DNA from: Candidatus Paceibacter sp. | GTDB taxonomy: Bacteria; Patescibacteriota; Patescibacteriia; S139-126 | Assembly: GCA_020724865.1 (NCBI GenBank) | Contig: DYGA01000004.1 | Span: 6,351 to 70,350 of the forward strand | Direction of reading: 5' to 3' | Length of the DNA stretch: 64,000 nucleotides | Shown here: in pieces, positions 1,385-50,634 of the stretch | Numbering within the stretch: the first letter of the stretch is position 1 | Layout: every line of letters begins with the position of its first letter | Position numbers and translations under genes: made by a program | Notes under the pieces: generated by a model | Databases searched by the model: none | What the model was told of the DNA's origin: nothing | Seen by the model: the letters and a program-made list of their open reading frames with translations, nothing else

Positions 1385-3511
1385 ATGGATTTATCAATAA
1401 ATACAATATTTATTCCCAATAATAAAGCAAATAACAACTGCAGTTTTTTTTATAAGATTCAACCTGAATTACCTGAACTGGGAGTATTGATATTTGGTAT
1501 TGATACCACTTTAAAAACTAATCAATTCGAAAAAATACTTAAACTTTTTTTTAATTTAAGTGATAATTATTTTCTTAAACAAGATATTACTGATCCTTTA
1601 GGTTGTTTTGAAAATGTTTTAAATGAATTTAATACAGATTTTGCTTTAACTTTTAAAGAACAAAATATTTGGTCAAAAAAAATAAATTTGACAATTGCTT
1701 TACTAATTGATAATAAACTTCATTTTGCTAACTACGGTAATAATCATTTATTGCTTCTAAGACAAAAAAATTATATCGATGTTATCAAGCAAGTATCGGC
1801 TAATTTATATATTCCGGGTAAAAAAATTTTTGATCAAATTTATTCTGGCCCAATAACTAACTTCCCGCGCATTGCCTTAGTCAATCAAGCAATTTTTGAC
1901 TACCTTAGTATTGATAATATTAAAAAAATATTTAATCTTTTACCTATAAAAAATATAGGCAATCAAATTGAGCAACTAACTATCAACACTTTTATAAACC
2001 AAAATTTGTCAGGGATAATTCTTATCAATCCTGCCAATCCCACACTAAAATCTGAAGATAAAAATATTATTAATTTATCCGCTGAGGAAACAATTAAAAG
2101 CTTAGAAACAAAAACAGCTGAAACTCAAAAATATCTACATCCTAAATATCTACCAGATATTACCAATATAAAAACAAAGTTAAAAAATATTTGGCTACCA
2201 AACAAAAAAAAATTGGTTTATAATAACAATCAATCATTACCTAAATTTAATAACTATTTTAAAAGATTCAAAGATTTTCCCACTGATTTAATAAACTTTA
2301 ATCGAAAAATAAAACATAAAAAAGATGATTTTTTAAACATATTGAAAAATTCACCAAGTAATTTAATTTTTGCTATTAAACTATTTAAAAATAAAATCAA
2401 ATTACTTTCTGGTTTAAGTAAATTTTTACTTGCAACAGCCTTAATTTTACTGGTAGCTTTGTTAACTAATTTGTCTCTAATGGGTATTAGTAAAAATACT
2501 AATATAAACACAGAATACTTTACAGAAAATGTAAATAAAATAAACAATTTACACAATGAAGCTCAAGCGGCAATTATTTATGGCGATAATCAAAAAGCAA
2601 GAAAAATATTGGGTGAAGCCCTAAATTTAATTTCCAGCTTGCCCAAAAATAACACGGAAAGAGAAAATATTAATAAAGAACTTTTTAATAAAAATTCAGA
2701 ATTAATGGCCGAGGCCAATAAACTTACTGTGTTATCAAATCTTACCAATTTAATTGATATTAAAAATTTTACCTCTGATAAAATAATTTCTGGCGGTTTA
2801 GCAACTTCAGAAAATAATTTATATATTCTTACTAATAATAATTTATTTAAATTAAATTTAATCAATCGTGATATTATTGCCACAAATTTACCAGCAGAAT
2901 CACCACTGTTTTTAATTAGTGATCAAAATAATTTACTTGTTTATTTTAAAAATAATTCAATTTATCTTTACGAAAATAAATCAAATATCTGGCAAGAATT
3001 AAAATTTAACTGGCCAAACGCAAATTTCCCTATAACAGGTGCTATTTATAATGACAATATTTATTTGGTAAATGATAACAACCAAATTATTCGTTATAAC
3101 CGCTCAGGAGATGGATTTATTAATTCACAAACTTGGTTAGGAACAAATCAATTACCAAAAATAAAAAGTTTAGCAATCGATGGATCAATATATACTTGGC
3201 ACGAAAATGGAGACATAAATAAATTTACCCGTGGTCAATTAGACAATTTTTCGGTTGAACCAATTGAACCAATAATTCGGAGTAGCTTTCAAATTATAAC
3301 TGCCAACGATATCCCTGCATTATATTTATTGGATAATAATAATCAACGAATTATAATCTACAATAAAGATGGCAAATTGATAAAACAATATAAATTCGAT
3401 GTGGCCAATCAAATTAAAAGCATGACTGTAACCAGAATAAAAGAAAATAATAAAAGACTGATTTATTTAATTAATGACGATAATATTTATGAACTTCTAG
3501 TTGATGAATAA
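1385..3511 (+). CDS. membrane protein: N-terminal PP2C-like domain with degenerate catalytic motifs, one TM helix, C-terminal extracytoplasmic repeat (beta-propeller-like) domain
   Basis: ALLIDNKLHFANYGNNHLLLLRQ resembles the PP2C motif (..kLyvANvGDSRavL.r), but GDSR is replaced by GNNH. Hydrophobic TM at about aa 340-365 (LLATALILLVALLTNLSLMGI). C-terminal half carries repeated Y/N/W-rich beta-like segments. Confidence 0.5.
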   Translation: MDLSINTIFIPNNKANNNCSFFYKIQPELPELGVLIFGIDTTLKTNQFEKILKLFFNLSDNYFLKQDITDPLGCFENVLNEFNTDFALTFKEQNIWSKKINLTIALLIDNKLHFANYGNNHLLLLRQKNYIDVIKQVSANLYIPGKKIFDQIYSGPITNFPRIALVNQAIFDYLSIDNIKKIFNLLPIKNIGNQIEQLTINTFINQNLSGIILINPANPTLKSEDKNIINLSAEETIKSLETKTAETQKYLHPKYLPDITNIKTKLKNIWLPNKKKLVYNNNQSLPKFNNYFKRFKDFPTDLINFNRKIKHKKDDFLNILKNSPSNLIFAIKLFKNKIKLLSGLSKFLLATALILLVALLTNLSLMGISKNTNINTEYFTENVNKINNLHNEAQAAIIYGDNQKARKILGEALNLISSLPKNNTERENINKELFNKNSELMAEANKLTVLSNLTNLIDIKNFTSDKIISGGLATSENNLYILTNNNLFKLNLINRDIIATNLPAESPLFLISDQNNLLVYFKNNSIYLYENKSNIWQELKFNWPNANFPITGAIYNDNIYLVNDNNQIIRYNRSGDGFINSQTWLGTNQLPKIKSLAIDGSIYTWHENGDINKFTRGQLDNFSVEPIEPIIRSSFQIITANDIPALYLLDNNNQRIIIYNKDGKLIKQYKFDVANQIKSMTVTRIKENNKRLIYLINDDNIYELLVDE

Positions 3512-3585: not shown

Positions 3586-3999
3586 CTATTTTAAATTAAC
3601 TTTAGCGCCAGCTTCTTCTAATTTCTTTTTCATTTCTTCTGCTTCTTCTTTTTTAACACCTTCCTTCAAAACTTTAGGTGCACCGTCAACTAAATCTTTT
3701 GCTTCTTTTAATCCTAATTGTGTAACCTCTCTAACTACCTTAATAACACCGATTTTATTGTCACCAGCTGATGCTAATTCAACAACAAAGTCAGTTTTTT
3801 CCTCAGCTGCTTCACCACCTCCGGCTGCTGATACGGCAGCAGTTACGGCAACTGGAGCAGCGGCAGAAACGCCAAATTTATCTTCCAAAATTTTTACTAA
3901 TTCAGACAAATCAAGCACTGACATTTTTTCTATTTCTTCAACAATTTTTTTAAATTTTTCAGGAATTTCAACTTGTTTATCTTTTTTTTCATCTGTCAT
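3586..3999 (-). CDS. rplL: 50S ribosomal protein L7/L12
   Basis: Typical L7/L12 sequence: N-terminal dimerisation region ([27 protein letters not shown]), Ala-rich hinge, and C-terminal domain ([34 protein letters not shown]). Confidence 0.92.
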
Positions 4000-4010
4000 A
4001 TTTTTACTAC

Positions 4011-4535
4011 TTAATTTTTAGAATTTTTAATTGCGTTTAACGCATAAACTAAACTTCGTAAATTACCCGCCAATACATTAACCAATCCAGATACAGGAGC
4101 ATTGATACTGCCTACTAATTTAGCTAATAATTCTTCTTTACTTGGTAGTGTTGCTAGGTCTTTAACTCGGTTAGAATCAATGAATGAATGCTCTAACATA
4201 CCACCAAATATTTGCATAGCTTCGTTGGTTTTGCCAAATTTTACTAATACTTTTGCTGGTGCTATTTCATCTTGATAACCAAACGCTACGGTAACAGCAC
4301 CAGTAAAATTATCAACTATTGTTTCGTCAAATTTATTTTGCTTTAAAGCAATCTTTAATAAATTTTTCTTTGCCATCTTTAATTCTGCACCATCTTGACG
4401 TAAATTTTTACGAAGATCTTCGGTTTGACTAACTGTTAAATTATTATAAGAAGCAAAAATAACTGATTTAGCTTGAGCTAATTTTTCAGATAAATCTTTT
4501 ACTTCTTTTTCTTTTTGTTGTTTAGTTTTAGCCAT
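4011..4535 (-). CDS. rplJ: 50S ribosomal protein L10
   Basis: L10-like sequence immediately upstream of rplL. I place the start at the internal Met ([18 protein letters not shown] at 4535) rather than the ORF-track start at 4595, because the upstream 20 codons look like leader sequence. Confidence 0.85.
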
Positions 4536-4700
4536 ATAAAATAAAAAACTGCGTTTAAACGCAGACTTTTTTTCGGTAATCGACCTAATCCACAATAAAG
4601 GATCTTACCTCGATAGGCGCAAATTTTGCATTACATAAAGGTTAAACCTTTATAACCTATTGTCTGCGGTGTAAAAATATTATATCATAAGAAAATATCT
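4536..4700 (-). promoter_or_regulatory. putative L10 (rplJ) leader / 5' UTR
   Basis: About 160 nt of non-coding sequence upstream of rplJ with local secondary-structure potential. By analogy to bacterial L10 leaders that bind the L10(L12)4 complex. Not confirmed by any conserved motif I can see by eye. Confidence 0.25.
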
Positions 4701-4709: not shown

Positions 4710-4742
4710 ATAAAAAAACCCCGTTAATTATAACGGGGTTGA
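4710..4742 (-). terminator. intrinsic terminator (minus strand)
   Basis: Hairpin aaccccgtta-atta-taacggggtt (4717-4740), followed on the minus strand by a U-run (complement of aaaaaaa 4712-4718). Lies downstream of the small ORFs at 4751-5133. Confidence 0.6.
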
Positions 4743-4750: not shown

Positions 4751-4921
4751 TTAAGAAAAATATGGCTTTTTTTGTGATTCTGATTTCATTACGGGCCGAT
4801 GTTCTTCTTTTTTATCAATTGGAGGAGTGATAAACTGTTTTTCTATATATTGAGCAATAAATTCGTTCTCTTTGTCATCAGTTTTATTTTCTTTATTTTT
4901 TTTACTATTGTCATTATTCAT
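4751..4921 (-). CDS. hypothetical small charged protein (56 aa), translationally coupled to the upstream ORF
   Basis: ATG at 4921..4919 overlaps the TGA stop of the 4918..5133 ORF (ATGA overlap). Translation: MNNDNSKKNKENKTDDKENEFIAQYIEKQFITPPIDKKEEHRPVMKSESQKKPYFS. Below the ORF-track length cutoff. Confidence 0.3.
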   Translation of the reverse strand: MNNDNSKKNKENKTDDKENEFIAQYIEKQFITPPIDKKEEHRPVMKSESQKKPYFS

Positions 4922-5133
4922 AAAGCACCCACCTCTAAATAAAAAGGCTTTTCGTTTTTTCTCAAAATCAAAAAAGAAGAAAATGGAAAATTCATTTCTG
5001 TAAAATTGTGTTGTTGCAAATATCTATAATATTCTTCTTTTTTTTGTTCGTTTTCTCTTTCTCGCCTATTTTTTTCCTCTTGTTTGATGTCAATTTGAAC
5101 ATCGTGAGACTGATTTGATGCTTGGTTATTCAT
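4918..5133 (-). CDS. hypothetical small protein (71 aa)
   Basis: Strong Shine-Dalgarno (AAGGGAGGT) 5 nt upstream of the ATG at 5133. Highly charged N-terminal half. No homology recognised. Confidence 0.45.
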   Translation of the reverse strand: MNNQASNQSHDVQIDIKQEEKNRRERENEQKKEEYYRYLQQHNFTEMNFPFSSFLILRKNEKPFYLEVGAL

Positions 5134-5379
5134 AAGAACCTCCCTTAGATTTGTTATTAGATAAATAATTTGTTAAAGAGCTAAAAAAACAAAAAAACTG
5201 GCTAAATAGTAGCCAGCTTTTAAAATATTTTAAAACTGCTGACTACAACGCCAGATTAATAATAATAATTACAAATAAAACTATTTGCGCGCCAGAATGC
5301 AATATTTTTTCAGATTTACCTGTAGTCATGTAAAAATGATAACAAAATTATAAAATCCTTCAATAGTATAGTTGTGGAT

Positions 5380-5412
5380 AAATTAAAACCAGCCTACGTT
5401 AAGGCTGGTTAA
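5380..5412 (-). terminator. intrinsic terminator (minus strand) downstream of the 5427..6551 gene
   Basis: Hairpin aaccagcc-tacgtt-aaggctggtt (5387-5410), followed on the minus strand by ttttaattt. Confidence 0.5.
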
Positions 5413-5426: not shown

Positions 5427-6551
5427 TTAGAGGCCACCGTGTAAAGTTATTGTCTCTACACGATTATCACTGCCTTGTATCAAACCGTTTTGACTAAAAC
5501 CAAATTGGAATACATAGTAAAATGTTCCGTTAATACCCCAGGCTTGATCATAGAGATGAACTAATGATTTATTATATTGCGGTTTACCGGGTAAAAACTT
5601 TTCTACCAATACTCTAACCCCTAAAGGAGGGTTTTGTGGTTCTCTGGTACGGAAAGCAGTCAAAGTATAACTATTTTCTTTTCCCGTATTTTTAACAACG
5701 ATACCGCGATAATGAAAGCATAAACTATTCCAAGTAGTTTCAATCATATTGACATATCTGGTGCCTTCGCCGCCAATATATTCTTCACCGGCTTCACTTA
5801 AATTAGATACATAACGAACATCTTCATCGCAACAATTAGCACCCTGCCAATAGAAGTCCATTTCTGGATAAGGAGGATTGAGATTGGGAAAATCAGCACT
5901 CCAAGTATTGTGCAAATTTTTGGTTAATTCATCTTGATTTGACACAAAGGGTGCCACCCTCATAAGCGTATTTAAATTATCATAGGTTTGTTTAATACTG
6001 GTACAAGAACCACTGCATTTTGATACTAGACTAAAAACAAAATAATCATATTCATTACCCTTTGGGGTAGTACCGTGAACAACTTGTGTCAATTGTACAT
6101 AACCAGAGGAATTAACCTCAATATACATAGGATAAGCTTGAGTTTCACCACCAATAACCATAAATGCGCGATAATCACCCCAAGTCACTTTGAATGGTGG
6201 ACAGGTATAAAAGCCATTATTTCCTGGCCAAGTACCCACTTCTTGAATATAGATAGCTGCGCCTTGCTGGTTGGTTAGAACAACAAATACTTTATCACCA
6301 TCTTTATATAATGGTATATCATCTTCACTATTGCCTTTCATCAGTCTTGTAGAACCAGTATAATCTGGAGCATAACCTAAACCAACCCCGGTGATAGTTA
6401 TATCTTTTCCATCAAAGGTAACATCCTGGCCACCACTAAGTGCTGAAACCGGATCTTTATAATCCTCCTGACAACCTTGGAAAAGGTTAAAAGAAAAAAA
6501 GGCAACTAGAATAACTACTAGAAACGGCAAGAACTTTTTGAACTTGTTCAT
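5427..6551 (-). CDS. hypothetical lipoprotein (signal peptide with lipobox LFQGC)
   Basis: N-terminal signal peptide ending in LFQG-C (lipobox). Gly/Tyr/Thr/Asn-rich mature domain with several Cys pairs. Local GC looks modestly higher (about 35-43% over sampled 60-mers) than neighbouring genes (about 28-32%). Confidence 0.6.
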   Translation of the reverse strand: MNKFKKFLPFLVVILVAFFSFNLFQGCQEDYKDPVSALSGGQDVTFDGKDITITGVGLGYAPDYTGSTRLMKGNSEDDIPLYKDGDKVFVVLTNQQGAAIYIQEVGTWPGNNGFYTCPPFKVTWGDYRAFMVIGGETQAYPMYIEVNSSGYVQLTQVVHGTTPKGNEYDYFVFSLVSKCSGSCTSIKQTYDNLNTLMRVAPFVSNQDELTKNLHNTWSADFPNLNPPYPEMDFYWQGANCCDEDVRYVSNLSEAGEEYIGGEGTRYVNMIETTWNSLCFHYRGIVVKNTGKENSYTLTAFRTREPQNPPLGVRVLVEKFLPGKPQYNKSLVHLYDQAWGINGTFYYVFQFGFSQNGLIQGSDNRVETITLHGGL

Positions 6552-6598
6552 GATCTGAACTCCTTTATTTGTGAAACATGTTAAATTAATTAGAACTA

Positions 6599-7744
6599 CT
6601 AGAACAAAAAATATTTTACATTAAGACTGATATCAAAAATATCAATCGGTGGATCAACTAAAATCTGATCGATTTTATAAAATTCAATTTCATCTCCCGA
6701 TTCATAAGAGATATTGACATTTAAATCAAATGGGAAAGCACAAAAATTTAATGTCAAAAATCCTCCTATCCATTTAGGTTGATGTTTTCTGGTATATAAT
6801 TCATCGTCATATTTACTTATACTTGTTTGATAACCAAAAGTATAAGAAAATTTAGTAGTTAAATTATCTTGATAACCAATACGAAATTTTGCCCGATTAT
6901 AATAACCAGTCGACGAACGAACACGATATAATTGTACTAAATCGTATTTTTCTTGTTCTCCAGAAATTAATAATTTCCAAATATTAATTAAAGCGCTTAA
7001 ACGGTAATATTTATAATCAATCTCAGAATTTTCGTAATCATAAGAAAGATTAATATCTAGTCCGCCAATTACTTTAAACCAACTAAAATCTAAACCAGAA
7101 TTTATAGTTAAACCAGAAAAAAATGCTCCATAATAATACTGATTTACATCAAAATCTTCTATCCATTTATAATCTAAGATTCCTATTTGCAAATCAGTAC
7201 TTAAAACAAGAAGTGAACTTAACCATTTTCTGTACCAACCAAAACCTGTTCTGACTTCGTTAAGCGGTAGAGTTGTGGCTTTAAACCAACCGTTATGAAA
7301 TTGATCATAAAAAGCATAAATACCGCTACTATCACAGTCAGCTAAACAAGGTTCACAAGGATCACGTGACTGGATCACCACTGGCGGTGGTAAAATTGGT
7401 TCAGGTTCAGCACAATCAATAAAATGCACTAAAACATCTATTAACTCATCTCCTTTGAGTCCGGTGATAGAAAAAATATACGGTTCATCTAGGCGCGAAC
7501 CATTTGGTATATATTTTGATTCATAAAAAGTTGAATCAATATAAATATCAAGTTGATCAGCGCAATCACCAATATATTTTAACCACACATCAATACAATT
7601 ATTTTCCTGATAGACAATATTAACTTTTTCAATTTTTCCTTTTTTAAAGGCAATATTGTCTATAATTTCAATCTCCTGTTGAGCTATTGTCGGATAAACC
7701 AATGACAAAAAAAGGAGCAACCAACAAAATTTAACTACTTTCAT
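6599..7744 (-). CDS. secreted beta-rich protein with OMP-like C-terminus (..NVKYFLF-COOH)
   Basis: Cleavable signal peptide (MKVVKFCWLLLFLSLVYPTIAQQ). Cys-rich N-terminal module (DPCEPCLADCDSSG). Long aromatic/Gly-rich alternating segments. Terminal strand with alternating hydrophobics ending in Phe, as in outer-membrane beta-barrels. Confidence 0.55.
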   Translation of the reverse strand: MKVVKFCWLLLFLSLVYPTIAQQEIEIIDNIAFKKGKIEKVNIVYQENNCIDVWLKYIGDCADQLDIYIDSTFYESKYIPNGSRLDEPYIFSITGLKGDELIDVLVHFIDCAEPEPILPPPVVIQSRDPCEPCLADCDSSGIYAFYDQFHNGWFKATTLPLNEVRTGFGWYRKWLSSLLVLSTDLQIGILDYKWIEDFDVNQYYYGAFFSGLTINSGLDFSWFKVIGGLDINLSYDYENSEIDYKYYRLSALINIWKLLISGEQEKYDLVQLYRVRSSTGYYNRAKFRIGYQDNLTTKFSYTFGYQTSISKYDDELYTRKHQPKWIGGFLTLNFCAFPFDLNVNISYESGDEIEFYKIDQILVDPPIDIFDISLNVKYFLF

Positions 7745-7881
7745 TTTTACCTCTTTATATTTAGTTTTAAAAAAAACATTTCCGCTTACCTTAACACAAA
7801 AAATTTTATTTTGTCAAGATCATTAAAAAACCTTGTTACCAACAAGGTTTAAAAAACAAAATAAACTAAAAATATATAAAA

Positions 7882-11788: not shown

Positions 11789-13360
11789 TTAAATCAATGA
11801 TTTGCCTGTCATTTCATCAGGAATAGGCAAACCCAATAAAGTTAAAATTGTGGGAGCAACATCAGCCAATACCCCCACTGGCGTACTCGCATACAATTCA
11901 TTTTTGTTAGCTAGCCTTCCCTGTCCAAGCCACTGGTTACCAATAATTAATAGAGGCACGGGTGAAGAAGAGTGTTCTTTGTCTATCTCTCCACTGCGTA
12001 ATTTAATCAATTCTTCAGCGTTACCATGATCTGCTGTTATCAATAAAACTCCATTGCGTACTAAAACTGCTTGAGCTATCTTACCTAAACAATCATCAAC
12101 CGCTTCAATACCTTTAATCGTAGCGGCTAAATTACCGGTATGTGCCACCATATCGGGCGAAGCATAATTGACTAATATAAACATATAATCACCTTTATTT
12201 ATTGCGGCAACAACTTTTTTAGTTACTTCGTAAGCTGACATTTCTGGCTTTTTATCGTAACTGGAAATCTTCGGAGAAGGTACCATTACATGTTCTTCAC
12301 CAGGAAAAGGTTTTTCTATACCGCCATTGAAAAAAAATGTTACGTGGGCATATTTTTCTGTTTCGGCTATATGAATTTGTTTGCCGCCATTATCTGAGAT
12401 TACCTTAGCCAAAGGTATAGAAACTATTTCTGGTGGAAAAGCAATTTTTACTGGCAAATCTTTTTCATATTCAGTCATAGTAACAAAAAATAGATTACGG
12501 CATACTTTTCCTCTAGTAAATCCTGTAAAATTATCCAACACCATTGCCTTGGTTAATTCCCGAGCGCGATCACTGCGAAAATTAAAATAAATAACTGCAT
12601 CATTATCGGAAATTAAGTTTGGATTTTTCTTTTCATCTACAATAATAGTAGGAACAAACTCCTCATCAAAAACACCACTTTCATAAGATTTATTGACTGC
12701 CTCTACCGGGTCGGTATAAACAAATTCAGCTTTACCTAAAACCATAGCATCATATACCTTAGCTATTCTATCCCAACGATTATCACGATCCATGGCGTAA
12801 AACCGACCACTAATTGATGCAATTTTACCCAAACCAACATTTTGTAAAACTTTTTGTAAAGCAACAATATAGCTCAACCCACTATTTTTTGCTGTATCAC
12901 GTCCATCTAAAAAAGCATGGATATATAAATCTTTGATTGAATTAATTTTAGCCGTTTCAATTAAAGCATAAAGATGCTCATTGAAGCTATGCACTCCACC
13001 ATCAGATACTAAACCCATAATATGTAACTTTGAATTATTTTTTTTAACATGATCAAATGCTTCTAAAAACGCTTTATTTTTTATAAAACTACCATCGGAA
13101 ATAGCTCTAGTAATACGAGGTAAATTTTGGTATAAAATTTTTCCTGAACCCAATGATAAATGTCCGACTTCTGAATTACCCATCTCGCCCCATGGCAAAC
13201 CCACAGCTTCACCAGAAGCTTGAATATTAAAAGATGGATAATTTAATAAAAAACTATCATAATTTGGTGTATTAGCTAGGGATATTGCATTGCCTATAGA
13301 AGGCGGGGCAATTCCCCAGCCATCAAGCACTACTAATACAACAGGAAGGTTAAATTTCAT
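11789..13360 (-). CDS. gpmI: 2,3-bisphosphoglycerate-independent phosphoglycerate mutase (canonical copy)
   Basis: Conserved iPGM motifs: VVLDGWG, MGNSEVGH (phospho-Ser), SDGGVHS, LDGRDT, RFYAMDRDNRWDR, RSDRA, ETEKYAHVTFFFNGG, ADHGN, EHSSSPVP, MTGKSLI. Confidence 0.92.
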   Translation of the reverse strand: MKFNLPVVLVVLDGWGIAPPSIGNAISLANTPNYDSFLLNYPSFNIQASGEAVGLPWGEMGNSEVGHLSLGSGKILYQNLPRITRAISDGSFIKNKAFLEAFDHVKKNNSKLHIMGLVSDGGVHSFNEHLYALIETAKINSIKDLYIHAFLDGRDTAKNSGLSYIVALQKVLQNVGLGKIASISGRFYAMDRDNRWDRIAKVYDAMVLGKAEFVYTDPVEAVNKSYESGVFDEEFVPTIIVDEKKNPNLISDNDAVIYFNFRSDRARELTKAMVLDNFTGFTRGKVCRNLFFVTMTEYEKDLPVKIAFPPEIVSIPLAKVISDNGGKQIHIAETEKYAHVTFFFNGGIEKPFPGEEHVMVPSPKISSYDKKPEMSAYEVTKKVVAAINKGDYMFILVNYASPDMVAHTGNLAATIKGIEAVDDCLGKIAQAVLVRNGVLLITADHGNAEELIKLRSGEIDKEHSSSPVPLLIIGNQWLGQGRLANKNELYASTPVGVLADVAPTILTLLGLPIPDEMTGKSLI

Positions 13361-13362
13361 AA

Positions 13363-14937
13363 TTACTCATTAGCTAATAAATTTCTTCCAGTCATTTCTC
13401 TGGTTTTGGGTATATTCATCACAGATAAAATGGTTGGTGCAACATCAGCCAATCTGCCGTTAGGAAATTTATGAGTTGGAAAAAGCCTGTTATTGGCTAT
13501 AATATAAAATGGCACGGGATTACTAGAATGTTCAGTATCAATTTCTCCAGTTTGAACATTGATGATTTCTTCAACATTACCATGATCAGCAGTTACAAAC
13601 AAAACGCCGTCGCGAGACAATACTTCCTTTTGCAACAAACCTAAATTTTTATCAACACACTCAATTGCCTTAATCGCCGCACCTAAATTACCGGTATGAC
13701 CCATCATATCAGGTGCAGCATAATTGATGGCATAAAAATCATACTTATTATTTTTAATATTCTCAATTACAATTTCGGTTATCTTGTCAGTTGACATTTC
13801 TGGTGTTTGATCATATGAATCAACAATCGGCGAAGGAACAAAAACTCTGTCCTCACCAGCTACGGTATGATCATGCCCGCCATTAAAAAAATAAGTGATA
13901 TGAGCATATTTTTCGCCCTCGGCAATATAAAGTTGTTTTAAATTTCTTAAAGCATAAGGCAAGGTACCACTAATATTTGCTGAGGGATAAGCAGTCAAAA
14001 CATGGTCAAGATCAGGACCAAAATCTGTCATGGCAACAAAAACTAGATTTTTTATAATTTTTTCCCTTTGAAAAGAACCTGGATTTTTGTCTTCAAACTC
14101 TTTTTGAACAAAGGGTTTAGTCAGTTGTCTGGCTCGATCAGATCTAAGATTATAAAAAATTATTGAATCATTGTCTTTTATTCGCCCGTAGTTAGGGTCA
14201 TTGTTCATACTAATTATTGTTGGGCTGATAAATTCATCTGTTTCACCACAAGCATAAGCTTCTTTGATGGCTTTTTCTGGTTTAATTGCTAATTTACCAA
14301 TGCCCATAGTTAAAGCCTCATAAGCTTTTTTAGTTTTAGCCCAATCTTTTTTGCGATCCAATAAAACCCGCCCCATTATAGTTACAATTCTTTCGCGAGG
14401 CTGTAAAATCTCTTCAAGATTTCTTAAAAAACCAAGCCCAGCATGCTTGGGCGTATCTCGACCATCAGTAAATAAATGTAAATAAATTTCATTAGTTAAA
14501 TTTTTTTGGCGAATTAACTTTAATAACGCTTCCAAATGCTTAGGATTAACATGTCCAGAATGTTTATCAGATAATAAGCCCATGAGATGTAAATTACTGT
14601 TATTTTTTTGTACATGAGCAATAGCAGAAATAAAAGCTGAATTCTTAAAAAATGTGCCGTCTTCAATACTATGATTAATAATTGAAACATCTTGCCCAAC
14701 AACTCTACCGGCGCCAATATTCATGTGACCGGCTTCACTGTTACCATCCTGATTTGGCATCAGTCCAACATCTTCTCCTGAAGCTGCCAAAAAAGTATGA
14801 TAATATTTTTCACGAAATAAATTAAAATTTGGTGTGTGAGCCATCTCTACAGGATTGTCAGGTTGATTGGCGGCTATTCCCAAACCATCAATCACTACCA
14901 AAACATAAGGTTTTCTTTGTACTTGATTATCTGGCAT
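13363..14937 (-). CDS. iPGM-family paralog (divergent 2,3-bisphosphoglycerate-independent phosphoglycerate mutase / phosphopentomutase-like)
   Basis: Same fold motifs but diverged: DGLG, DGNSEAGHMNIGAGR, SDKHSGHV (altered His motif), TDGRDT, RSDRARQ, EGEKYAHITYFFNGG, ADHGN, EHSSNPVP, MTGRNLL. By eye about 35% identical to the adjacent copy. Confidence 0.8.
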   Translation of the reverse strand: MPDNQVQRKPYVLVVIDGLGIAANQPDNPVEMAHTPNFNLFREKYYHTFLAASGEDVGLMPNQDGNSEAGHMNIGAGRVVGQDVSIINHSIEDGTFFKNSAFISAIAHVQKNNSNLHLMGLLSDKHSGHVNPKHLEALLKLIRQKNLTNEIYLHLFTDGRDTPKHAGLGFLRNLEEILQPRERIVTIMGRVLLDRKKDWAKTKKAYEALTMGIGKLAIKPEKAIKEAYACGETDEFISPTIISMNNDPNYGRIKDNDSIIFYNLRSDRARQLTKPFVQKEFEDKNPGSFQREKIIKNLVFVAMTDFGPDLDHVLTAYPSANISGTLPYALRNLKQLYIAEGEKYAHITYFFNGGHDHTVAGEDRVFVPSPIVDSYDQTPEMSTDKITEIVIENIKNNKYDFYAINYAAPDMMGHTGNLGAAIKAIECVDKNLGLLQKEVLSRDGVLFVTADHGNVEEIINVQTGEIDTEHSSNPVPFYIIANNRLFPTHKFPNGRLADVAPTILSVMNIPKTREMTGRNLLANE

Positions 14938-16256: not shown

Positions 16257-16760
16257 TTATTTAATAATTTTTATAATATCATCAGCATTATATAAATTTT
16301 GACCAATGCCATCTGGACCAAATGAGCCAACTACCGCGCTATTATGGCAACCAGCATTTCCATTACACGGTTTATTATCAGTAGTTAATTGATAATCAGT
16401 ATCAAAAAAATATTTATTCCCCCACGGGTCAATAGGGATATCACCCATATATGGACCAGCCCAATTTAAATATAAACCATCAGAAGACAAAATTCCTGCC
16501 GCATCTGTAGCTAAATCCCATAATTCGTTGGCACTACCAGAATTAATTTCTTCAGCTGTCTGGTGTCCTGGCCATTCGCCCGTATCAACCATCAACTGGC
16601 CCATGGCTGTATAAATAATATCAATATCATGTTGGGCTTTGGCAATTTTTGCTTTTTGTCTTGCAGATCTGACTGCTATGACAGTCAAAGTACTTAATAC
16701 TCCAATAATAGCAATTACTATTAACACCTCGACCAATGTAAAACCTTTTAATCGGGGCAT
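16257..16760 (-). CDS. type IV pilin / pseudopilin-like protein (prepilin N-terminal methylation motif)
   Basis: N-terminus MPRLKGFTLVEVLIVIAIIGVLS has the class III signal: G at -1, F at +1, E at +5. Variable C-terminal domain with Cys pair. Confidence 0.78.
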   Translation of the reverse strand: MPRLKGFTLVEVLIVIAIIGVLSTLTVIAVRSARQKAKIAKAQHDIDIIYTAMGQLMVDTGEWPGHQTAEEINSGSANELWDLATDAAGILSSDGLYLNWAGPYMGDIPIDPWGNKYFFDTDYQLTTDNKPCNGNAGCHNSAVVGSFGPDGIGQNLYNADDIIKIIK

Positions 16761-18905: not shown

Positions 18906-20531
18906 CTATTCTAAAGGTAAGGTAAATTTGAAAGTAGTACCTTTATTTTCACCTTCGCTCTCTGCCCAAATATTACCGCCATGACCTTCGATTATTTTTT
19001 TAGCAATATAAAGTCCTAAGCCAACACCGCTTGTATCAACTTTATTTATATCTTTACCGCGTTTAAATTTTTGAAATAATTGATCAAGTTCTTCATAACT
19101 TATTCCCTTACCGTTGTCCTGAACTTTCACTAGAATATATTTATCCATATTTTTTGCTGATACTTTGATATGTCCGCCAATAGGTGTATATTTTATGGCA
19201 TTATCAATAAGGTTAATAATTACATCAGCCATTTTGTCTATATCAAACTTAAATAATGGGACATCACTTTCTTTAAATTCAATCTTTATATGTTTTGTAC
19301 TGGCTTCGATAGCTAGTGATTTAATTATGTCATCCAATAAACGATTAAGATCGTTTAAATTTTTATTAATTTTCAAACGCCCTGATTCAATCCGTGAGAT
19401 ATTTAAAAATATATTTATTAAGCGAATTAATCTTTCAGAATTACGCAATAGAATACCAATAATATCTGCTTGTTTTTTTGACATTTTGCCAAAATCACCA
19501 TCTTGTAACATGGAAAGATAACCTTTAATTGCTGATAAAGGGGTACGTAACTGATGAGAAGTTATTGATAAAAATTCAGTTTTGGCTTCATCTAATTGTT
19601 TTAAACGTTCATTAGCAACCTGTAATTCTGAGGTAATTTTTTCTAATTTTTCTTTTTGCTCGATTTCTTTTCTGACGCTTTTTATTAAGAAAAAGCCTAC
19701 AAATATTAAAGCGTTAAAGATTATTAAGCGTAAAATTATTACGTTTAAATTATTGGTAAAAAATATTTCAGCAAATGAACTAAAAGCTAATAAAAACACC
19801 AATAATTCCGTAGCAACAATTTTGATATTCAACAGATGATGTTTTAAAATCGCATAAGTAGTAAAAACAATAAAAGGAAAAAAGAATACGGCTCCCAAGG
19901 ATATATAAGTTGGATTATTTAAAAAAGCTGGATAAATAAAATTAAAAATTATAATAAAAGTAAAAGTAATTATAGTACCAGTTAAAATCAAACGTAAAGG
20001 TAAAGCATCTTTAGCATCAGAATTTTTTATTTTTTTAATTAACGTGTAAATAGCGCTAAAAACCAAACCAATACTTAAAGAACCAAATAAAATTATCCCC
20101 GGCCCGTTAGTTACTGATGTGGCTCCACCTGTGACTAAAACCCCGTTTATTTTTTTCAGAACAAAAGAGGTTAAAGTCAACAATGATACTAAACAAACCA
20201 CAGGTACTAAAAATCTTTTGTAATTTTTAGAAAAATTAAATTTAGCATGCGGATAAACATAAAAAAATTGAAAAATAAAAAAAGCTTGCCAAACGGCAAA
20301 AAATAAAACCAACCTTAATAACCATAAAATGATTTCTGGATCAAACAAATTATAACTTAAATAATTTATTACACCCCAAATTACAGTAACTAAAACAAAT
20401 AATGCAAAAGAAATGTTAGTTATACTACGAACATTTCTGATATAAACAATGACGCCTAATATAATTGAAGTTATTGTAACTAACCCAACAGTAAATAGAT
20501 TTAAATTAAAAGTCATTACTTCCATAATCAA
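18906..20531 (-). CDS. sensor histidine kinase (polytopic membrane N-terminus, HisKA and HATPase_c)
   Basis: At least 8 predicted TM helices. Coiled-coil. H-box ITSHQLRTPLSAIKGY. N-box IINLIDNAIKYT. G-boxes QDNGKGI and GVGLGLYIAK. 4-nt overlap with the upstream nitroreductase gene. Confidence 0.82.
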   Translation of the reverse strand: MIMEVMTFNLNLFTVGLVTITSIILGVIVYIRNVRSITNISFALFVLVTVIWGVINYLSYNLFDPEIILWLLRLVLFFAVWQAFFIFQFFYVYPHAKFNFSKNYKRFLVPVVCLVSLLTLTSFVLKKINGVLVTGGATSVTNGPGIILFGSLSIGLVFSAIYTLIKKIKNSDAKDALPLRLILTGTIITFTFIIIFNFIYPAFLNNPTYISLGAVFFFPFIVFTTYAILKHHLLNIKIVATELLVFLLAFSSFAEIFFTNNLNVIILRLIIFNALIFVGFFLIKSVRKEIEQKEKLEKITSELQVANERLKQLDEAKTEFLSITSHQLRTPLSAIKGYLSMLQDGDFGKMSKKQADIIGILLRNSERLIRLINIFLNISRIESGRLKINKNLNDLNRLLDDIIKSLAIEASTKHIKIEFKESDVPLFKFDIDKMADVIINLIDNAIKYTPIGGHIKVSAKNMDKYILVKVQDNGKGISYEELDQLFQKFKRGKDINKVDTSGVGLGLYIAKKIIEGHGGNIWAESEGENKGTTFKFTLPLE

Positions 20532-21595
20532 TTAATAAATTTTACATCTGGCTGACTTTTCAAAGCTTTGGCTCTAACCGGTGGCGCAAAACCAATTCTA
20601 AATGACATGGCAATTAAATTATTACCGACATTAAATAGATCATGCAAAACTTGATAGTTACTTAAAATTTTATCAGTTTGCGCATTATCAAATACATCAC
20701 CACTACCTGCTACAATACGCAAACGAGCAAAACACAAGGCACTGACCGGATGAAAGGCCAATCCTAAAGCAGTCGCTTTGAGCCAAACTCTTTCCATAGC
20801 CCGTCCAGCAAAAATAAAATTTTCCTGGGTATCTTCGGGAATGATAATTGCTCCGACAGCTGCTCCGCTTGAATATAATTTAGCATCTTCTTTAGCCACC
20901 ATTTTAGCTAATCCCAATTTATTTAACCAAATCGCCCTCTGCCAATTACTGGCAAGAAAAAAAACAAATTTTTGCATTAAATTGAACTCCATGGTGCCTA
21001 TATAAAATCCCTTTTTTAATTTGGCAAAAACTTTTTTTGACCAAATAATATCTTTAAACAACAGGGCGTGCAAATCTTTGTGTTGTAAAATTATTTCTTC
21101 AATTGAACTCATGGCACGACCAATTAATTTCTTTTTTTCATCATCATCAATAAAAATTAATCTGACTTTATTTTCTTGACCAATTTTTATTATTTCCTGT
21201 TTCAGTGCATTGGTTTGTTCTAAAGTCATTTTAATATTTTTATATTTACGACGGTTTGTGTGCCTTTGTGATAAATACGGGAATAAAGCATCAGTTTCTA
21301 CATGACTATCGCACAAAACTACTTTAGCAACTAGATCTTTTTGTCGTTCATCTGGAAACAATTCCAACTGAGCTTGCAATTGAAATTTGGTAGCCGCAAT
21401 ACTAATATTTTCCAATAAACCGCCGTGACCAATATATGAACCGCGCTGGTTGATATTTAAAATTGGATTGTCAGATTTAGGTAAATTAAAAACAAATATA
21501 ATATTGTCTTTTACTTCAAATCGCCAAGGCTGAGAATTGTCACCCGAAGGAGCATTAATTGCTAATGTTAAAATTTTTTCAATTGTTTCTTTCAT
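20528..21595 (-). CDS. nitroreductase-family flavoprotein with enlarged central insertion (SagB/McbC-like size class)
   Basis: N-terminal nitroreductase signature AINAPSGDNSQPWRF. C-terminal dimerisation/FMN segment SSGAAVGAIIIPEDTQENFIFAGRAMERVWLKATALGLAFHP. At 355 aa it is much longer than NfsB-type enzymes. Confidence 0.7.
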   Translation of the reverse strand: MKETIEKILTLAINAPSGDNSQPWRFEVKDNIIFVFNLPKSDNPILNINQRGSYIGHGGLLENISIAATKFQLQAQLELFPDERQKDLVAKVVLCDSHVETDALFPYLSQRHTNRRKYKNIKMTLEQTNALKQEIIKIGQENKVRLIFIDDDEKKKLIGRAMSSIEEIILQHKDLHALLFKDIIWSKKVFAKLKKGFYIGTMEFNLMQKFVFFLASNWQRAIWLNKLGLAKMVAKEDAKLYSSGAAVGAIIIPEDTQENFIFAGRAMERVWLKATALGLAFHPVSALCFARLRIVAGSGDVFDNAQTDKILSNYQVLHDLFNVGNNLIAMSFRIGFAPPVRAKALKSQPDVKFIN

Positions 21596-21598
21596 ATT

Positions 21599-22693
21599 TT
21601 AAAGACCAATAATATTTAAAAATTTTTTTAATTGTTTTTGTCTTTGTGCAATCTTTTGTTTTTGATTGTAAGTTGGATCAAAAATTGCATCTAAATTAAC
21701 TTCATATTGACCTGATTTTAAAGGTTGTTTATTGGCCAATCTCCTAACTAAATAAGCCACCGCTACTCCTGATAACATAGCCGCGTCCCCCAATTGAGGC
21801 CAAGAATAAATAGTTTTACCAACTTGTAATAAAGAAATTTGCATCCGAGGAGCAACTTTATCTTGACCGGCAATTTTGGTTGATAAACGAGGCATATCTT
21901 GCGGATGAATTTTTTTAAAATCTGACAATGTTAAATCACCAACCCTTCCATTAAAAATTTTTAAATTATGATCTAGATCATACCTTTCCACATCTACTAT
22001 TATATTATCACCGTTGTCAGTAGCCATAATAACAGGGATTTTTAATTTTTTTGCTGCCAATCTAATTCTAATTTTCATTTCTAAATTATCCATTTCTTCA
22101 ATTAAAACATCCAACTTGGGCGGAGCGGCTAAAAAATTGATTAAATTTTTCTCATTTAAACCTTCGGGATAAGTAAAAATTCTCGCATAAGGATTTATTT
22201 GATAAATTTGTTGACTGGCAAGATCGCATTTTTTTTTGCCGATATCCAAGACTGTGTACCTGACACGATTTAGATTTGAAGGCGATAAAACGTCCGGATC
22301 GGCAATTTTCATCTTTTTACCACCACCCATCACAGCAATTGATATGGCTGCGTGACTACCAACACTAAGTCCGGCTACACCAATATTATAATTATAAAAT
22401 TTTTCTTGTTCACTGGCAGTAATAATTTCTTTATTTCTACCAGTCCGAACCGTTAAAAAATCTTTTTCTGATAAAATGTGCACATATTTATCCAACCAAG
22501 GAAAAAAAACCCAATTACCTTTATCAGATTTTTTAATAAACTCTGCTAATGGTTTTTGATAATCCTTAATAAAACGATATTGAGGATTTTTCAACAAAAA
22601 CAAATCAGTAAGTTGTTCCTGATATGTATCTATCAACTTTGATTTTTTTATCTTAGTAAATGATTTTTTTATTATGGGTTTGTTTTTATCCAT
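21599..22693 (-). CDS. E1-like / ThiF-MoeB-family adenylyltransferase with about 100-aa N-terminal extension
   Basis: Rossmann GxGxxG (IGVAGLSVGSHAAISIAVMGGG). ThiF-type motif IADPDVLSPSNLNRV...DIGKKKCDLASQQIYQINPYARI. N-terminal about 100 aa precede the fold, an architecture like MccB/PaaA-type peptide-adenylating E1 homologs. No CxxC zinc knuckle seen. Confidence 0.7.
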   Translation of the reverse strand: MDKNKPIIKKSFTKIKKSKLIDTYQEQLTDLFLLKNPQYRFIKDYQKPLAEFIKKSDKGNWVFFPWLDKYVHILSEKDFLTVRTGRNKEIITASEQEKFYNYNIGVAGLSVGSHAAISIAVMGGGKKMKIADPDVLSPSNLNRVRYTVLDIGKKKCDLASQQIYQINPYARIFTYPEGLNEKNLINFLAAPPKLDVLIEEMDNLEMKIRIRLAAKKLKIPVIMATDNGDNIIVDVERYDLDHNLKIFNGRVGDLTLSDFKKIHPQDMPRLSTKIAGQDKVAPRMQISLLQVGKTIYSWPQLGDAAMLSGVAVAYLVRRLANKQPLKSGQYEVNLDAIFDPTYNQKQKIAQRQKQLKKFLNIIGL

Positions 22694-24183
22694 TTTTGTT
22701 TGGTTCCAGGTTTAAAATATTTAGCATCTTCATATTGCCAAAAGACTATTTTTGGTATCACTCTTTTAGGATATTCTTCTGCGGTTTTACGATAAGAAGA
22801 ATTTTCAATTAATAGTCGACTAACTACTAATTTTTTTATTTTATCACTTAAAATTTTTGTACCTTTAACATTTGGTTGTAATTCAATATTTAATTCTAAA
22901 TACTGATTGGCGTTCTTATCATATTTAACCAACAGAGTAAATTTGCCGGTTATACTTTTTAACAAGTCTTTATGCCATAAAGATTTTCTTATTGTTTCGG
23001 GATATATTTGAAAAGCAAAAAAACTTACTGACAAATCTTTACGTTCGAAGACATAAACAAATGGTAAATTCCATAAAGTATCCTGTAAATTATATTTACT
23101 AATAAATTTATTTAGATCTAAACCATGGTTAGTAAAAATTTTATAAACTTCAAATAAAGTGACAATGCCACCGTAATCATGTAAATCATATCTGACTAAG
23201 GGATAACCACTATGAGCCGAACAAACTAAACTTTTATTAATATCTTCAAAATAAAACATTTCTGGTAAATATTGGGTAAAAGTTGGCAATTTATCACGCT
23301 CGGAAAATAACTCATAATATAAATTTTTATTTTTTAATGCTAGACGACGAATTAAAATAGATAATGGTGTCTCGTGTGACATGGTCCCCAAATCAACCGT
23401 ACCATAATGGTTAAGTGTACTACGATAAATGTCTTTACTACCAGTAATTTTAAAAATATAATCTCTAAAATCTTCATTAAAACCTTCAGCGGAAAATATA
23501 AAACCTAAATTATATTTTTTCCAATTTAAACCCAATCTTTGGCCCTCTTCTAGCGTATCTTTTAAAAACGGCGCGTAACTTCCGATTATAATTTGATCAA
23601 ATTCACGACCAATCTTTTTTACGGCATTTATTATTTCCAGTTTATTTATGCCCGGAGTAATAATACTTAAATTATACTTCCCTCTGGCCGACAAAATTTT
23701 TAATGCTTCATAAGTAAAAAGACCTCCAATCCAAGCTCCCATAGGAAAACCTACAATATATAAAGTACTTTTTTTATCAATATTAAAATTGGTCAATAAA
23801 TAAATTTCAGCAGTTAATGCATACTGTTCATCCTGTTCTTTAGTTCTGGGAAAATAAAATGGTTCACCGGTGGAACCTGAAGTCGTAGAAATTACCCATT
23901 GTTTTGTTTTAAAAATACCATCCCAAGACAGCTCCCGGGGACTATAATTTTGCAAATAATTTTTTTTATCTATAGTAGGTACTTGTTTAAAATCGGAAAT
24001 TGTTTTTATTTTTTGAGGATCAATCTTGTTTTTTTGTAACCAATCTTTATAAGCTGGCACACGCTTGGACATTTGCTGAAATAAATCTAAAGCCATCTTT
24101 TCTCCGCGTTTAATCCAATTTGACTCAGGTACTTTCTTTAAATCCTTGATAACTTTTTTAGCTGGAATTTTAATTAAATTCAT
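22672..24183 (-). CDS. PaaK / coenzyme-F390-synthetase-like adenylate-forming enzyme (ANL superfamily)
   Basis: A3-type motif VISTTSGSTGEPFYFPRT. Overall length about 500 aa and layout like phenylacetate-CoA ligase/F390 synthetase/CapK. 22-nt overlap with the downstream ThiF-like gene. Confidence 0.65.
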   Translation of the reverse strand: MNLIKIPAKKVIKDLKKVPESNWIKRGEKMALDLFQQMSKRVPAYKDWLQKNKIDPQKIKTISDFKQVPTIDKKNYLQNYSPRELSWDGIFKTKQWVISTTSGSTGEPFYFPRTKEQDEQYALTAEIYLLTNFNIDKKSTLYIVGFPMGAWIGGLFTYEALKILSARGKYNLSIITPGINKLEIINAVKKIGREFDQIIIGSYAPFLKDTLEEGQRLGLNWKKYNLGFIFSAEGFNEDFRDYIFKITGSKDIYRSTLNHYGTVDLGTMSHETPLSILIRRLALKNKNLYYELFSERDKLPTFTQYLPEMFYFEDINKSLVCSAHSGYPLVRYDLHDYGGIVTLFEVYKIFTNHGLDLNKFISKYNLQDTLWNLPFVYVFERKDLSVSFFAFQIYPETIRKSLWHKDLLKSITGKFTLLVKYDKNANQYLELNIELQPNVKGTKILSDKIKKLVVSRLLIENSSYRKTAEEYPKRVIPKIVFWQYEDAKYFKPGTKQKWIKTNP

Positions 24184-25232
24184 AAATTAAATTCTAAAGA
24201 ATTTAACCTGTTTTTAACCGCTGCATCAACTAAACGATGAAGTGGTTTATTTAATCTGTACGCCTCTTCTAAATAATAATGCAATCTATCGCCAATTGCT
24301 AAAACTTTATTAGTTACAGATAATTCATCAGTGACACCTTCATATTCGCTGACCACACTTATTAAACCGCCAGCATTAACTAAATAATCAGGCAAATATA
24401 AAATTTCTCTGCGCCACAATAAATCACCTAACTCCGGAGAAAATAATTGATTATTAGCTGCACCAACTATCATTCGACATTGAAAATTCTTATAATTATC
24501 AAAGGTGACAACATCGCTAAGTGCGCAAGGACAATAAATATCTAAAGATTGTAAATATAATTTATTGACCGGGACAATATTAATTTGCGGAAACTCACTT
24601 TTTATTTTATTCAATAGCTGAATGTTTATATCACTAAGATAAATATCAGCTTGTTTATTTAATAAAATTTTTAGTATTTCATATCCAACTTTTCCTGCGC
24701 CATCAATACCAATTTTTTTATTGGTAAAATCTCCCAACTTTAAATATTCAATAGATTTTTTCATTGCAGTCACCACACCTAAAGCAGTATAATAACTTGG
24801 ATCAACTATCACTCCAGAAACATACGGGGTAATTTTTTTCATGTTTACTACATCTTGCTGATAAACGCCCACGTCACTACCAGTTATAAATTCACCTGAT
24901 AATTTATTTATTTCATTGGCGTATTCATTAAAAAAATTTACCCTATCCTTTTTTAAATAATCAGTAGTAAATAATACTGCTTTTGCCCCGCCATAACTTA
25001 AATCAGCCGCTATTGATTTATAAGTCATTAAACAAGATAAACGTAAAACATCTATTAAAGCGTGTTTTTGATCATTATAATCATATAAACGAGTGGCACC
25101 AAAAGAAGGAAAATTATTAAAATGACGATGAATAGCAATAAAACCTTTTAATTGCTGGCCATCGATTTGGATTATTTTAGCGTGTTTATCAAAAAATTCT
25201 TCATCAACAAAATTTTCTGTAATAATTGACAT
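24180..25232 (-). CDS. Leu/Phe/Val-type amino-acid dehydrogenase (ELFV dehydrogenase family)
   Basis: FGATRLYDYNDQKHALIDVLRLSCLMTYKSIAADLSYGGAKAV closely parallels the LeuDH/PheDH catalytic region (..GGxRMW..[30 protein letters not shown]). NAD Rossmann GIDGAGKVG. 4-nt overlap with the PaaK-like gene. Confidence 0.8.
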   Translation of the reverse strand: MSIITENFVDEEFFDKHAKIIQIDGQQLKGFIAIHRHFNNFPSFGATRLYDYNDQKHALIDVLRLSCLMTYKSIAADLSYGGAKAVLFTTDYLKKDRVNFFNEYANEINKLSGEFITGSDVGVYQQDVVNMKKITPYVSGVIVDPSYYTALGVVTAMKKSIEYLKLGDFTNKKIGIDGAGKVGYEILKILLNKQADIYLSDINIQLLNKIKSEFPQINIVPVNKLYLQSLDIYCPCALSDVVTFDNYKNFQCRMIVGAANNQLFSPELGDLLWRREILYLPDYLVNAGGLISVVSEYEGVTDELSVTNKVLAIGDRLHYYLEEAYRLNKPLHRLVDAAVKNRLNSLEFNL

Positions 25233-50605: not shown

Positions 50606-50634
50606 TAAAAAAGGCAGTTAATAAAACTGCCAAT
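50606..50634 (-). terminator. possible intrinsic terminator (minus strand)
   Basis: Hairpin ggcagtt-aataaa-actgcc (50613-50632), followed on the minus strand by a T-run (complement of aaaaaa). Confidence 0.4.

Follow-up and report, generated by a model that had tools for sequence, protein, structure and literature searches.

Within the 64,000-nucleotide stretch of contig DYGA01000004.1 analyzed here (the window; GC content 31.1%), two adjoining open reading frames (ORFs) on the minus strand, 6599..7744 and 5427..6551, encode proteins of 381 and 374 amino acids (aa), at the positions where a first-pass annotation, made from the letters of the sequence, had placed them. The first encodes an exported protein whose C-terminal domain probably folds as a beta-barrel of the outer-membrane-protein (OMP) type; the second encodes a lipoprotein. 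The reading developed below, to which we assign a probability of roughly 0.55, is that the pair constitutes a lineage-specific, vertically inherited, bicistronic envelope operon of a small Patescibacteria clade, encoding an OMP-type barrel and a lipoprotein that would bind it. The features of the locus are collected in Table 1. Judged by its layout, the pair is a bicistronic operon, because a 47-nucleotide gap with a ribosome-binding site (RBS) and no terminator separates the genes, and hairpins stand on both flanks. The upstream hairpin, which marks one operon boundary, was identified by direct reading and is absent from the list of a consensus terminator scan. Likewise, the TTGACA upstream of the barrel gene, to which a promoter is tentatively assigned, went unscored as a match by the consensus scan. 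The downstream hairpin marks the other end of the operon and, as described below, of a divergent cassette.

Table 1. Features of the barrel-lipoprotein locus, in window coordinates.
Feature	Position	Strand	Details
Terminator-like hairpin AAACCTTGTTGGTAACAAGGTTTTTT	7825..7850	-	After the yceG/mltG stop codon, with T-run; read directly from sequence
Barrel-gene upstream region	7745..7824	-	TTGACA at 7817..7812, weak -10; RBS AAAGAGG 7756..7750
Sec signal peptide of barrel protein	7682..7744	-	aa 1-21; predicted cleavage after T-I-A; helix 2-14 in the AlphaFold2 model
N-terminal Cys-containing beta-domain	7409..7681	-	aa 22-112; Cys50, 61, 111; six short strands, low model confidence (pLDDT)
Pro/Cys-rich linker EPEPILPPPVVIQSRDPCEPCLADCDSS	7325..7408	-	aa 113-140; EPEPILPPP...DPCEPCLADC
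C-terminal domain, predicted 12-stranded OMP-like beta-barrel	6602..7324	-	aa 141-381; stop codon 6599..6601
Intercistronic spacer, 47 nt	6552..6598	-	RBS AAAGGAG 6566..6560; no terminator
Partner lipoprotein, 374 aa	5427..6551	-	Signal and lipobox aa 1-27; Cys27 codon 6471..6473
Intrinsic-terminator-like hairpin and T-run	5387..5410	-	17 nt past the lipoprotein stop codon

The 381-aa protein opens with the Sec-type signal MKVVKFCWLLLFLSLVYPTIA|QQE, which is kept in all close homologues; both this signal and the lipobox of the partner (PROSITE PS51257) were assessed by eye. Its cysteines fall at positions 7, 50, 61, 111, 130, 133, 137, and 335. The C-terminal 241 residues are 21% aromatic and display a significant period-2 alternation of hydrophobic residues (z=+2.9 versus shuffles), a signal that the same shuffle test found neither in the N-terminal domain nor in the lipoprotein. 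With the C-terminus ...ISLNVKYFLF, every element that the first-pass annotation had listed—signal peptide, Cys-rich N-terminal module, alternating aromatic-rich segments, and final strand—is present in the product. Neither this protein nor any of its relatives matches a family in Pfam or NCBIfam, and none has a counterpart among PDB sequences.

The adjoining 374-aa product carries a lipoprotein signal composed of KFKK, a hydrophobic core, and L-F-Q-G-C27, which fits PROSITE PS51257. The earlier call of an LFQGC lipobox is borne out further by the orthologues, all of which keep the [AG]-C pair (FSGC, LFGC, FTAC, FSAC, LTGC). The mature lipoprotein is beta-rich and abundant in Gly, Thr, and Pro, with six cysteines beyond Cys27; its family alignment is devoid of any conserved stretch, and searches of Pfam, NCBIfam, and PDB sequences, profile searches included, returned no match. 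Elsewhere in the window, a VKOR-family protein (PF07884, E 8e-28) is encoded at 25326..25772 on the plus strand, and such a homologue could oxidize the disulfides of Cys-rich exported proteins.

Structure prediction by AlphaFold2 (AF2), supplied with a seven-sequence family alignment, gave a best model of the 381-aa protein with a mean predicted local distance difference test score (pLDDT) of 65.9 and a predicted template-modeling (pTM) score of 0.55. In this model, the C-terminal domain comprises 12 antiparallel strands of 11-19 residues each, with the pLDDT of ten-residue blocks mostly 75-91 (range 52-91). The strands are connected, in order, by 10, 3, 9, 3, 4, 2, 10, 4, 10, 2, and 18 residues, such that longer loops (10, 9, 4, 10, 10, 18) alternate with tight turns (3, 3, 2, 4, 2) and both termini lie on the turn side, a predicted arrangement that is the standard layout of outer-membrane proteins. 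Across the family, 9-10 of the 12 strands present a single hydrophobic or aromatic face, with the opposite face polar; like the period-2 alternation, this pattern comes from the sequences and supports a barrel independently of the AF2 model. Foldseek comparison to the PDB likewise points to an OMP-type fold: all 50 of the matches listed are outer-membrane barrels, the best target-normalized TM-scores (0.51-0.54) being to the 12-stranded NanC, VhGalP, the intimin beta-domain, COG4313, and BrkA, followed by FapF (up to 0.52) and EspP (0.34-0.49). In a viral structure library (BFVD), the named top matches are autotransporter beta-domains and OMP-type barrels, alongside several unnamed entries. 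The proposal of an OMP-type barrel made from the letters is thus supported at the level of a model, which yields a barrel rather than a sandwich or propeller.

A number of observations pull in the other direction. The barrel is supported by a single AF2 model built from a seven-sequence alignment, the remaining four models reaching a mean pLDDT of only 43-53, and the lipoprotein model is unusable (pLDDT 36.7, from an alignment of near-identical sequences only). Foldseek E-values are only ~1e-4 and query-normalized TM-scores 0.25-0.40; profile searches detected no sequence similarity of the barrel family to OMP families even at E<=10. The window protein places hydrophobic residues at 2, 4, 6, 8, and 10 from its end, and not at the canonical 1, 3, 5, 7, and 9, while in P0015 and at locus L016 the beta-signal is missing. 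Lastly, the long loops (0.62) are better conserved than the strands (0.51), the opposite of typical porins. The use of the C-terminal Phe as an OMP signature consequently stands in part: an aromatic end is the rule in the family (Phe in seven and Trp in one of ten aligned members), and relatives P0007 (V-T-F-S-F-K-Y-L-F) and P0012 hold the canonical register, but the terminal Phe of the window protein is one residue out of step, as it is in its close relatives.

These same features—four low-confidence models of five, a pTM of 0.55, the want of sequence homology to OMP families, loops more conserved than strands, and an imperfect beta-signal register—would suit a C-terminal domain that is soluble or wall-associated and beta-rich, whether sandwich, solenoid, or open sheet. 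Closure of the barrel would then be an AF2 artefact of a shallow alignment and an alternating sequence, and the pair an ordinary surface protein and lipoprotein of the Candidate Phyla Radiation (CPR). We regard this alternative as unlikely, albeit the one to be taken most seriously: it sits poorly with a strict meander of twelve strands, each 11-19 residues long and joined on one side by turns of 2-4 residues, with the single hydrophobic face of most strands and the 21% aromatic content, and with the presence of nothing but outer-membrane barrels among the 50 PDB matches listed and the named BFVD matches. On balance, the OMP-type fold of the C-terminal domain is probable but not established, because the fold matches are modest and sequence similarity to OMP families is nil. 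Nearly all of the invariant charged residues (E238, D243, R276, K311, D314, E348, K357, and a D364-P-P motif) reside in the long loops, and since these loops are also the most conserved part of the domain, their sequences suggest an interface or site on that face of the barrel.

Searches of 5.8 billion clustered proteins and 1.84 billion representatives recovered some 12 relatives in all, every one of them unannotated. An exhaustive profile search of the 1.84 billion representatives gave seven matches, gaining three distant members and no link to any known family. In the distant relatives, the N-terminal region is unrelated to that of the window protein. Neither protein has a homologue outside a small clade in these collections, and the viral contigs scanned hold no relatives of the pair. 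Every relative with flanking DNA shares one gene order: phosphoglycerate kinase (PGK), pilin, enolase, two cofactor-independent phosphoglycerate mutase (iPGM) genes, DUF212, CAP, PCMT, and a ManC-like gene, continuing through YceG, barrel, lipoprotein, and two small ORFs to rplJ and rplL. This synteny matches the window in loci L001, L002, L007, L010, L011, L012, and L013, across which the identity of neighboring proteins to those of the window declines from 73-88% (L001, L002) to 40-69% (L007, L010). Even P0015, the most distant family member, has the same order, followed by a 527-aa lipoprotein. The comparison of loci indicates that the pair is inherited vertically within the lineage rather than imported. 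In locus L010, from the Patescibacteria-labeled relative, the lipoprotein gene is followed by a third gene (13172..13987), whose 271-aa product opens with a signal peptide, abounds in Gly, His, and aromatic residues, matches nothing in Pfam, and may be another beta-rich envelope protein.

The first-pass annotation had taken the pair to be horizontally acquired and foreign-derived, citing elevated GC. The GC of the lipoprotein gene is indeed raised, at 0.371 against a gene mean of 0.315 (standard deviation 0.034; z ~+1.6), the second highest of 64 ORFs, but that of the barrel gene (0.298) is typical. Under window-wide codon choice, the amino-acid composition of the lipoprotein predicts a GC of 0.358, approximately three-quarters of the excess. 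A local rise over the orthologous genes is seen also in a relative of 41% GC (0.477 versus 0.40; L010 10501..13500), and is a property of the gene family rather than of one genome. Horizontal transfer was accordingly rejected as the source of the GC signal. Region 5427..7744 is somewhat atypical in tetranucleotides (rank 3 of 124 sliding windows by distance), and the lipoprotein gene ranks 5 of 63 in codon-usage deviation, with the barrel gene at rank 31 of 63. Although the lipoprotein gene's GC, its codon usage, and the tetranucleotide distance would be in keeping with a foreign genomic islet carrying an envelope gene pair, that explanation is very improbable. It would have to accommodate a barrel gene of typical composition, a GC excess that composition predicts and that recurs in the 41%-GC relative, and a syntenic position fixed across deep divergence. 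No tRNA or rRNA gene lies in the window, and no integrase or mobility gene flanks the pair among the annotated genes. Acquisition across phyla is unsupported, because the relatives are restricted to the clade, their context is the same throughout, and tRNA and mobility genes are lacking nearby.

What exchange there has been at the locus lies within the clade, and locus L001 provides the clearest illustration. Relative to the window, its flanking genes are 73-88% identical—as close as those of L002—and the N-terminal domain 87-88%, but the barrel is just 29% and the lipoprotein 24% identical. DNA identity to L001 falls from ~0.8 to ~0.4 between ~7376 and 7227 and does not recover until 5432; the divergent block, ~7300..5433, thus coincides exactly with the barrel domain and the lipoprotein gene. 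The pattern is repeated in a second genome group, where L016 and L012, from one metagenome, are 93% identical through N-terminal domain and linker and ~30% identical in barrel and lipoprotein. In that group, L012 carries a class-1 cassette, and L016 resembles L001 in its pattern, with 46% identity to it in the barrel and 35% in the lipoprotein. Cassettes of class 1 are 72-93% identical in the barrel and 76-88% in the lipoprotein, even where YceG is just 58% identical. Moreover, the barrel and N-domain trees conflict, the window barrel being nearer to that of L011 (82%) than to that of L002 (72%).

The two cassette classes, ~30% identical to one another, both occur in both genome groups, while the N-terminal domain tracks the genome. 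From the L001 and L016 comparisons, the class-1 identities, and the tree conflict, it appears that the clade has kept at least two ancient allelic classes and recombined them, the breakpoint falling where linker meets barrel; the identity profile places it at the linker (aa 113-140) or just downstream. A fragment, P0014, hints at a third class. It is this within-clade exchange of a barrel-plus-lipoprotein cassette, rather than foreign import, that the alignments reveal, and replacement as one unit implies that the two parts function together. The description of the pair as a single surface module is thereby upheld, through both the operon and the joint replacement. By the same logic, since the N-terminal domain follows the genome as the cassette swaps, its interaction partner would seem to belong to the genome background.

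The identity of the organism bears heavily on what such a barrel might do. The window very probably derives from a rare Patescibacteria clade, as the first-pass annotation had surmised in suspecting a CPR genome. This assignment draws on the NCBI name of P0015 ('hypothetical protein [Patescibacteria group bacterium]') and its shared synteny, and on several markers. Ribosomal protein S2 scores ~232 bits against 6dzi/5o5j, 5li0, and 3j9w, which we take to be the ribosomes of M. smegmatis, S. aureus, and B. subtilis, and 191-201 bits against 6spe, 4ybb, and 6v39, presumably those of P. aeruginosa, E. coli, and A. baumannii. GyrB, at 674 aa, is devoid of the ~170-aa insertion of the 804-aa E. coli protein, an insertion that is proteobacterial. 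EF-Ts occurs in its short form of 200 aa; PSP1, DUF3048, and DUF212 are likewise encoded, with DciA added by the GyrB-side flank (locus L009, ~5 kb past the window end). TGA serves as a stop codon. Two related genomes, GCA_964493305.1 and GCA_964540695.1 (loci L004/L002 and L005/L001, respectively), are titled 'uncultured Gammaproteobacteria bacterium' in GenBank; these titles appear mislabeled, because S2, GyrB, EF-Ts, gene content, and synteny with a Patescibacteria-labeled genome all disagree with them.

Were those titles correct, or the clade an exceptional CPR lineage that possesses an outer membrane of its own and a BAM-like insertase, the pair could be an ordinary OMP and outer-membrane lipoprotein of a diderm, with the N-terminal domain in the periplasm, the barrel in the outer membrane, and the dimorphism a product of phage or predator pressure on surface loops. 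The signal peptide, even strand number, alternation of turns and loops, aromatic C-terminus, canonical beta-signal of some members, and adjoining lipoprotein gene are all as such a protein would have them. A gammaproteobacterial origin is contradicted by S2, by the lengths of GyrB and EF-Ts, by Terrabacteria-type genes, and by the Patescibacteria label of a syntenic relative. Against a diderm cell more generally, and indeed against any membrane-inserted barrel of the clade's own, CPR bacteria are described as monoderm where imaged, with no outer membrane, and are assigned, together with Chloroflexi, to a clade from which it was lost (10.64898/2026.03.03.709456; 10.1101/2021.05.31.446380; PMC8871954). 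The ~85 kb annotated, which make up just part of the genome, contain no gene for Bam, Lpt, Lol, TolC, or OmpM, and the pair supplies the single barrel candidate among the 64 window ORFs of at least 100 aa. An ordinary diderm arrangement is unlikely, a shade more so than the soluble fold considered above.

Returning to the envelope operon that we favor, a plausible mechanism can be outlined. The product of the first gene would be exported by Sec and would consist of an N-terminal beta-domain, probably disulfide-bonded, a Pro-rich linker, and a 12-stranded OMP-type barrel seated in a lipid layer that lies beyond the cytoplasmic membrane. The N-terminal domain, on the short-turn side, may serve as a cis tether, attaching the barrel to some conserved part of the cell's own envelope. 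The second product would be a lipid-anchored, beta-rich partner that docks on the barrel as cap, plug, or cargo, most plausibly at the conserved long-loop face, in the manner of LptE, SusD, and the Slam-dependent surface lipoproteins with their barrels. Surface exposure could then explain why the unit is kept as at least two deeply divergent, recombining classes, with hosts or phages driving diversification. The analysis itself shows the operon layout, the conserved synteny, the restriction to one clade, the joint replacement of barrel and lipoprotein, and the predicted fold and topology; insertion into a membrane, contact between barrel and lipoprotein, orientation, and the identity of the membrane are what we infer. 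That this Patescibacteria clade makes a genuine membrane-inserted, 12-stranded OMP-type barrel with a dedicated lipoprotein is a tentative proposition, clearly short of even odds. If it does, the cell's own outer lipid layer is the location that we would name first, with less than even confidence; the host cell's membrane and some other setting hold smaller and equal shares. A service in host or episymbiont interaction, as the first-pass annotation had also raised, is a possibility.

One form of such a service would be a host-directed device, in which a monoderm symbiont exports the barrel into the membrane of its host cell as an attachment point or nutrient conduit, tethered by the N-terminal domain and the membrane-anchored lipoprotein, with the allelic classes matched to different hosts. 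The notion gains some appeal from the literature, in which monoderm lineages have no membrane of their own for an OMP-type barrel; from an N-terminal domain that tracks the symbiont genome while barrel and lipoprotein swap together, with both classes in one sample; and from charged, conserved long loops that suggest a specific interface. It is purely inferential, however: no monomeric 12-stranded barrel is known to enter another cell's membrane from outside, and a C-terminal beta-signal implies a protein handed to a BAM machine from the periplasmic side. We therefore rate the device as rather improbable.

Why the operon matters follows from what is thought of its bearers. CPR/Patescibacteria are held to have lost, or never to have had, an outer membrane, and little is understood of how such tiny symbionts make contact with their hosts and feed on them. 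An OMP-like barrel with a co-evolving lipoprotein is a testable candidate for part of an unrecognized outer layer or for a host-interface channel. Should the barrel prove to be membrane-inserted, some CPR lineages would retain, or have re-evolved, an outer lipid layer with barrel proteins, bearing on the timing of outer-membrane loss in the Chloroflexi/CPR branch; alternatively, a symbiont would be planting a porin-like channel in its host's membrane. Either way, the surface unit would represent a balanced, recombining dimorphism. The two-class cassette and its breakpoint between linker and barrel would mark the two partners as one functional unit subject to diversifying or balancing selection, as is typical for molecules that hosts or phages encounter. 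Should the barrel prediction prove wrong, the pair becomes just another lineage-specific CPR surface protein set.

The surroundings of the operon and the remainder of the window hold further features of interest. Between the lipoprotein gene and the rplJ leader lie two small, overlapping, highly charged ORFs on the minus strand (4751..4921 and 4918..5133; 56 and 71 aa), flanked by hairpins at 5193..5221 and 4717..4740. They are kept in place in L001, L002, and L011, with at least the first in L016, and evolve fast (34-52% identity). An L10 leader (Rfam RF00557, 46.6 bits; 4534..4687, minus strand) precedes rplJ and is overlapped by the mechanical ORF start at 4595 (TTG); the true start is probably the ATG at 4535, which gives 174 aa as in relatives. 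The rplJ-rplL pair (3586..4595) is not followed by rpoBC and sits ~53 kb from nusG-rplK-rplA (57949..59725), upstream of which comparison with L009 locates secE at ~59.7-59.9 kb. Facing rplL on the opposite strand is a conserved 708-aa protein with no family match (1385..3511).

Further along, tandem iPGM paralogues (523 and 524 aa; 11789..14937, minus strand) are kept as a pair in all related loci, and a type IV pilin-like gene (N_methyl and T2SSG; 16257..16760, minus strand) lies between pgk and eno, with a second, weaker pilin-like ORF (35596..36099, minus strand) adjoining the DUF3048 protein. A four-gene run at 20528..25232 (minus strand) encodes a nitroreductase/TM1586-like protein, a ThiF-like protein, a 503-aa protein with no family match, and a Glu/Leu dehydrogenase-like protein; by analogy, the first two may recall the dehydrogenase and E1-like components of peptide-modification clusters. 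A 137-aa signal-peptide protein (50634..51047) was considered as a second small barrel and set aside for want of supporting evidence.

Among the known systems closest to the pair are the 12-stranded outer-membrane barrels of diderm bacteria, exemplified by the NanC/KdgM porins, COG4313 channels, FapF, and LpxR, with which the window protein would share strand number, strand length, and meander topology, along with the alternation of short turns and long loops, a Sec signal, and target-normalized TM-scores of ~0.5. It differs from them in having no sequence similarity, an added N-terminal Cys-rich domain, long loops that are the most conserved part of the family, and a lineage thought to be monoderm. 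Autotransporters and inverse autotransporters (EspP, BrkA, Hbp, intimin), which number among the top fold matches, also combine an extra domain, a linker, and a 12-stranded barrel. Unlike type Va autotransporters, however, the window protein has no match to Pfam Autotransporter (PF03797), and its linker is Pro-rich and not modeled as a pore-spanning helix; unlike autotransporter passengers, its N-terminal domain is just ~90 aa and Cys-rich. Nor is a dedicated partner lipoprotein a component of type V systems, whereas the window pair has one.

In this last respect, the pair more closely resembles LptD-LptE, SusC-SusD, Slam (type 11 secretion), and TbpA-TbpB, in which adjoining barrel and lipoprotein genes are exchanged as a unit and show the allelic diversity expected of surface-exposed complexes. 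The barrels of those systems have 14-26 strands, recognizable Pfam domains, and proven outer membranes, whereas the window barrel has a predicted 12 strands and the pair no family match. A further parallel is OmpM of diderm Terrabacteria, in which an N-terminal SLH wall anchor, a coiled-coil stalk, and a C-terminal porin barrel form a comparable series of cis-side domain, linker, and barrel in a Terrabacterial context. The window protein has no SLH domain or coiled-coil stalk, fewer strands, and no sequence similarity to OmpM, and the CPR are placed near Chloroflexi in a clade said to have lost it (10.1101/2021.05.31.446380). OMP-like barrels predicted computationally in lineages where no outer membrane is expected do have a forerunner in the IsItABarrel database, whose predictions in monoderm-containing phyla are based on sequence patterns and unvalidated; the window family, its lipoprotein partner, and the cassette polymorphism are not described in that survey (PMC10629564). 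Set beside these systems, the operon combines a fold type that is known with sequence families that are new, in a lineage context and with a cassette dimorphism that are unusual.

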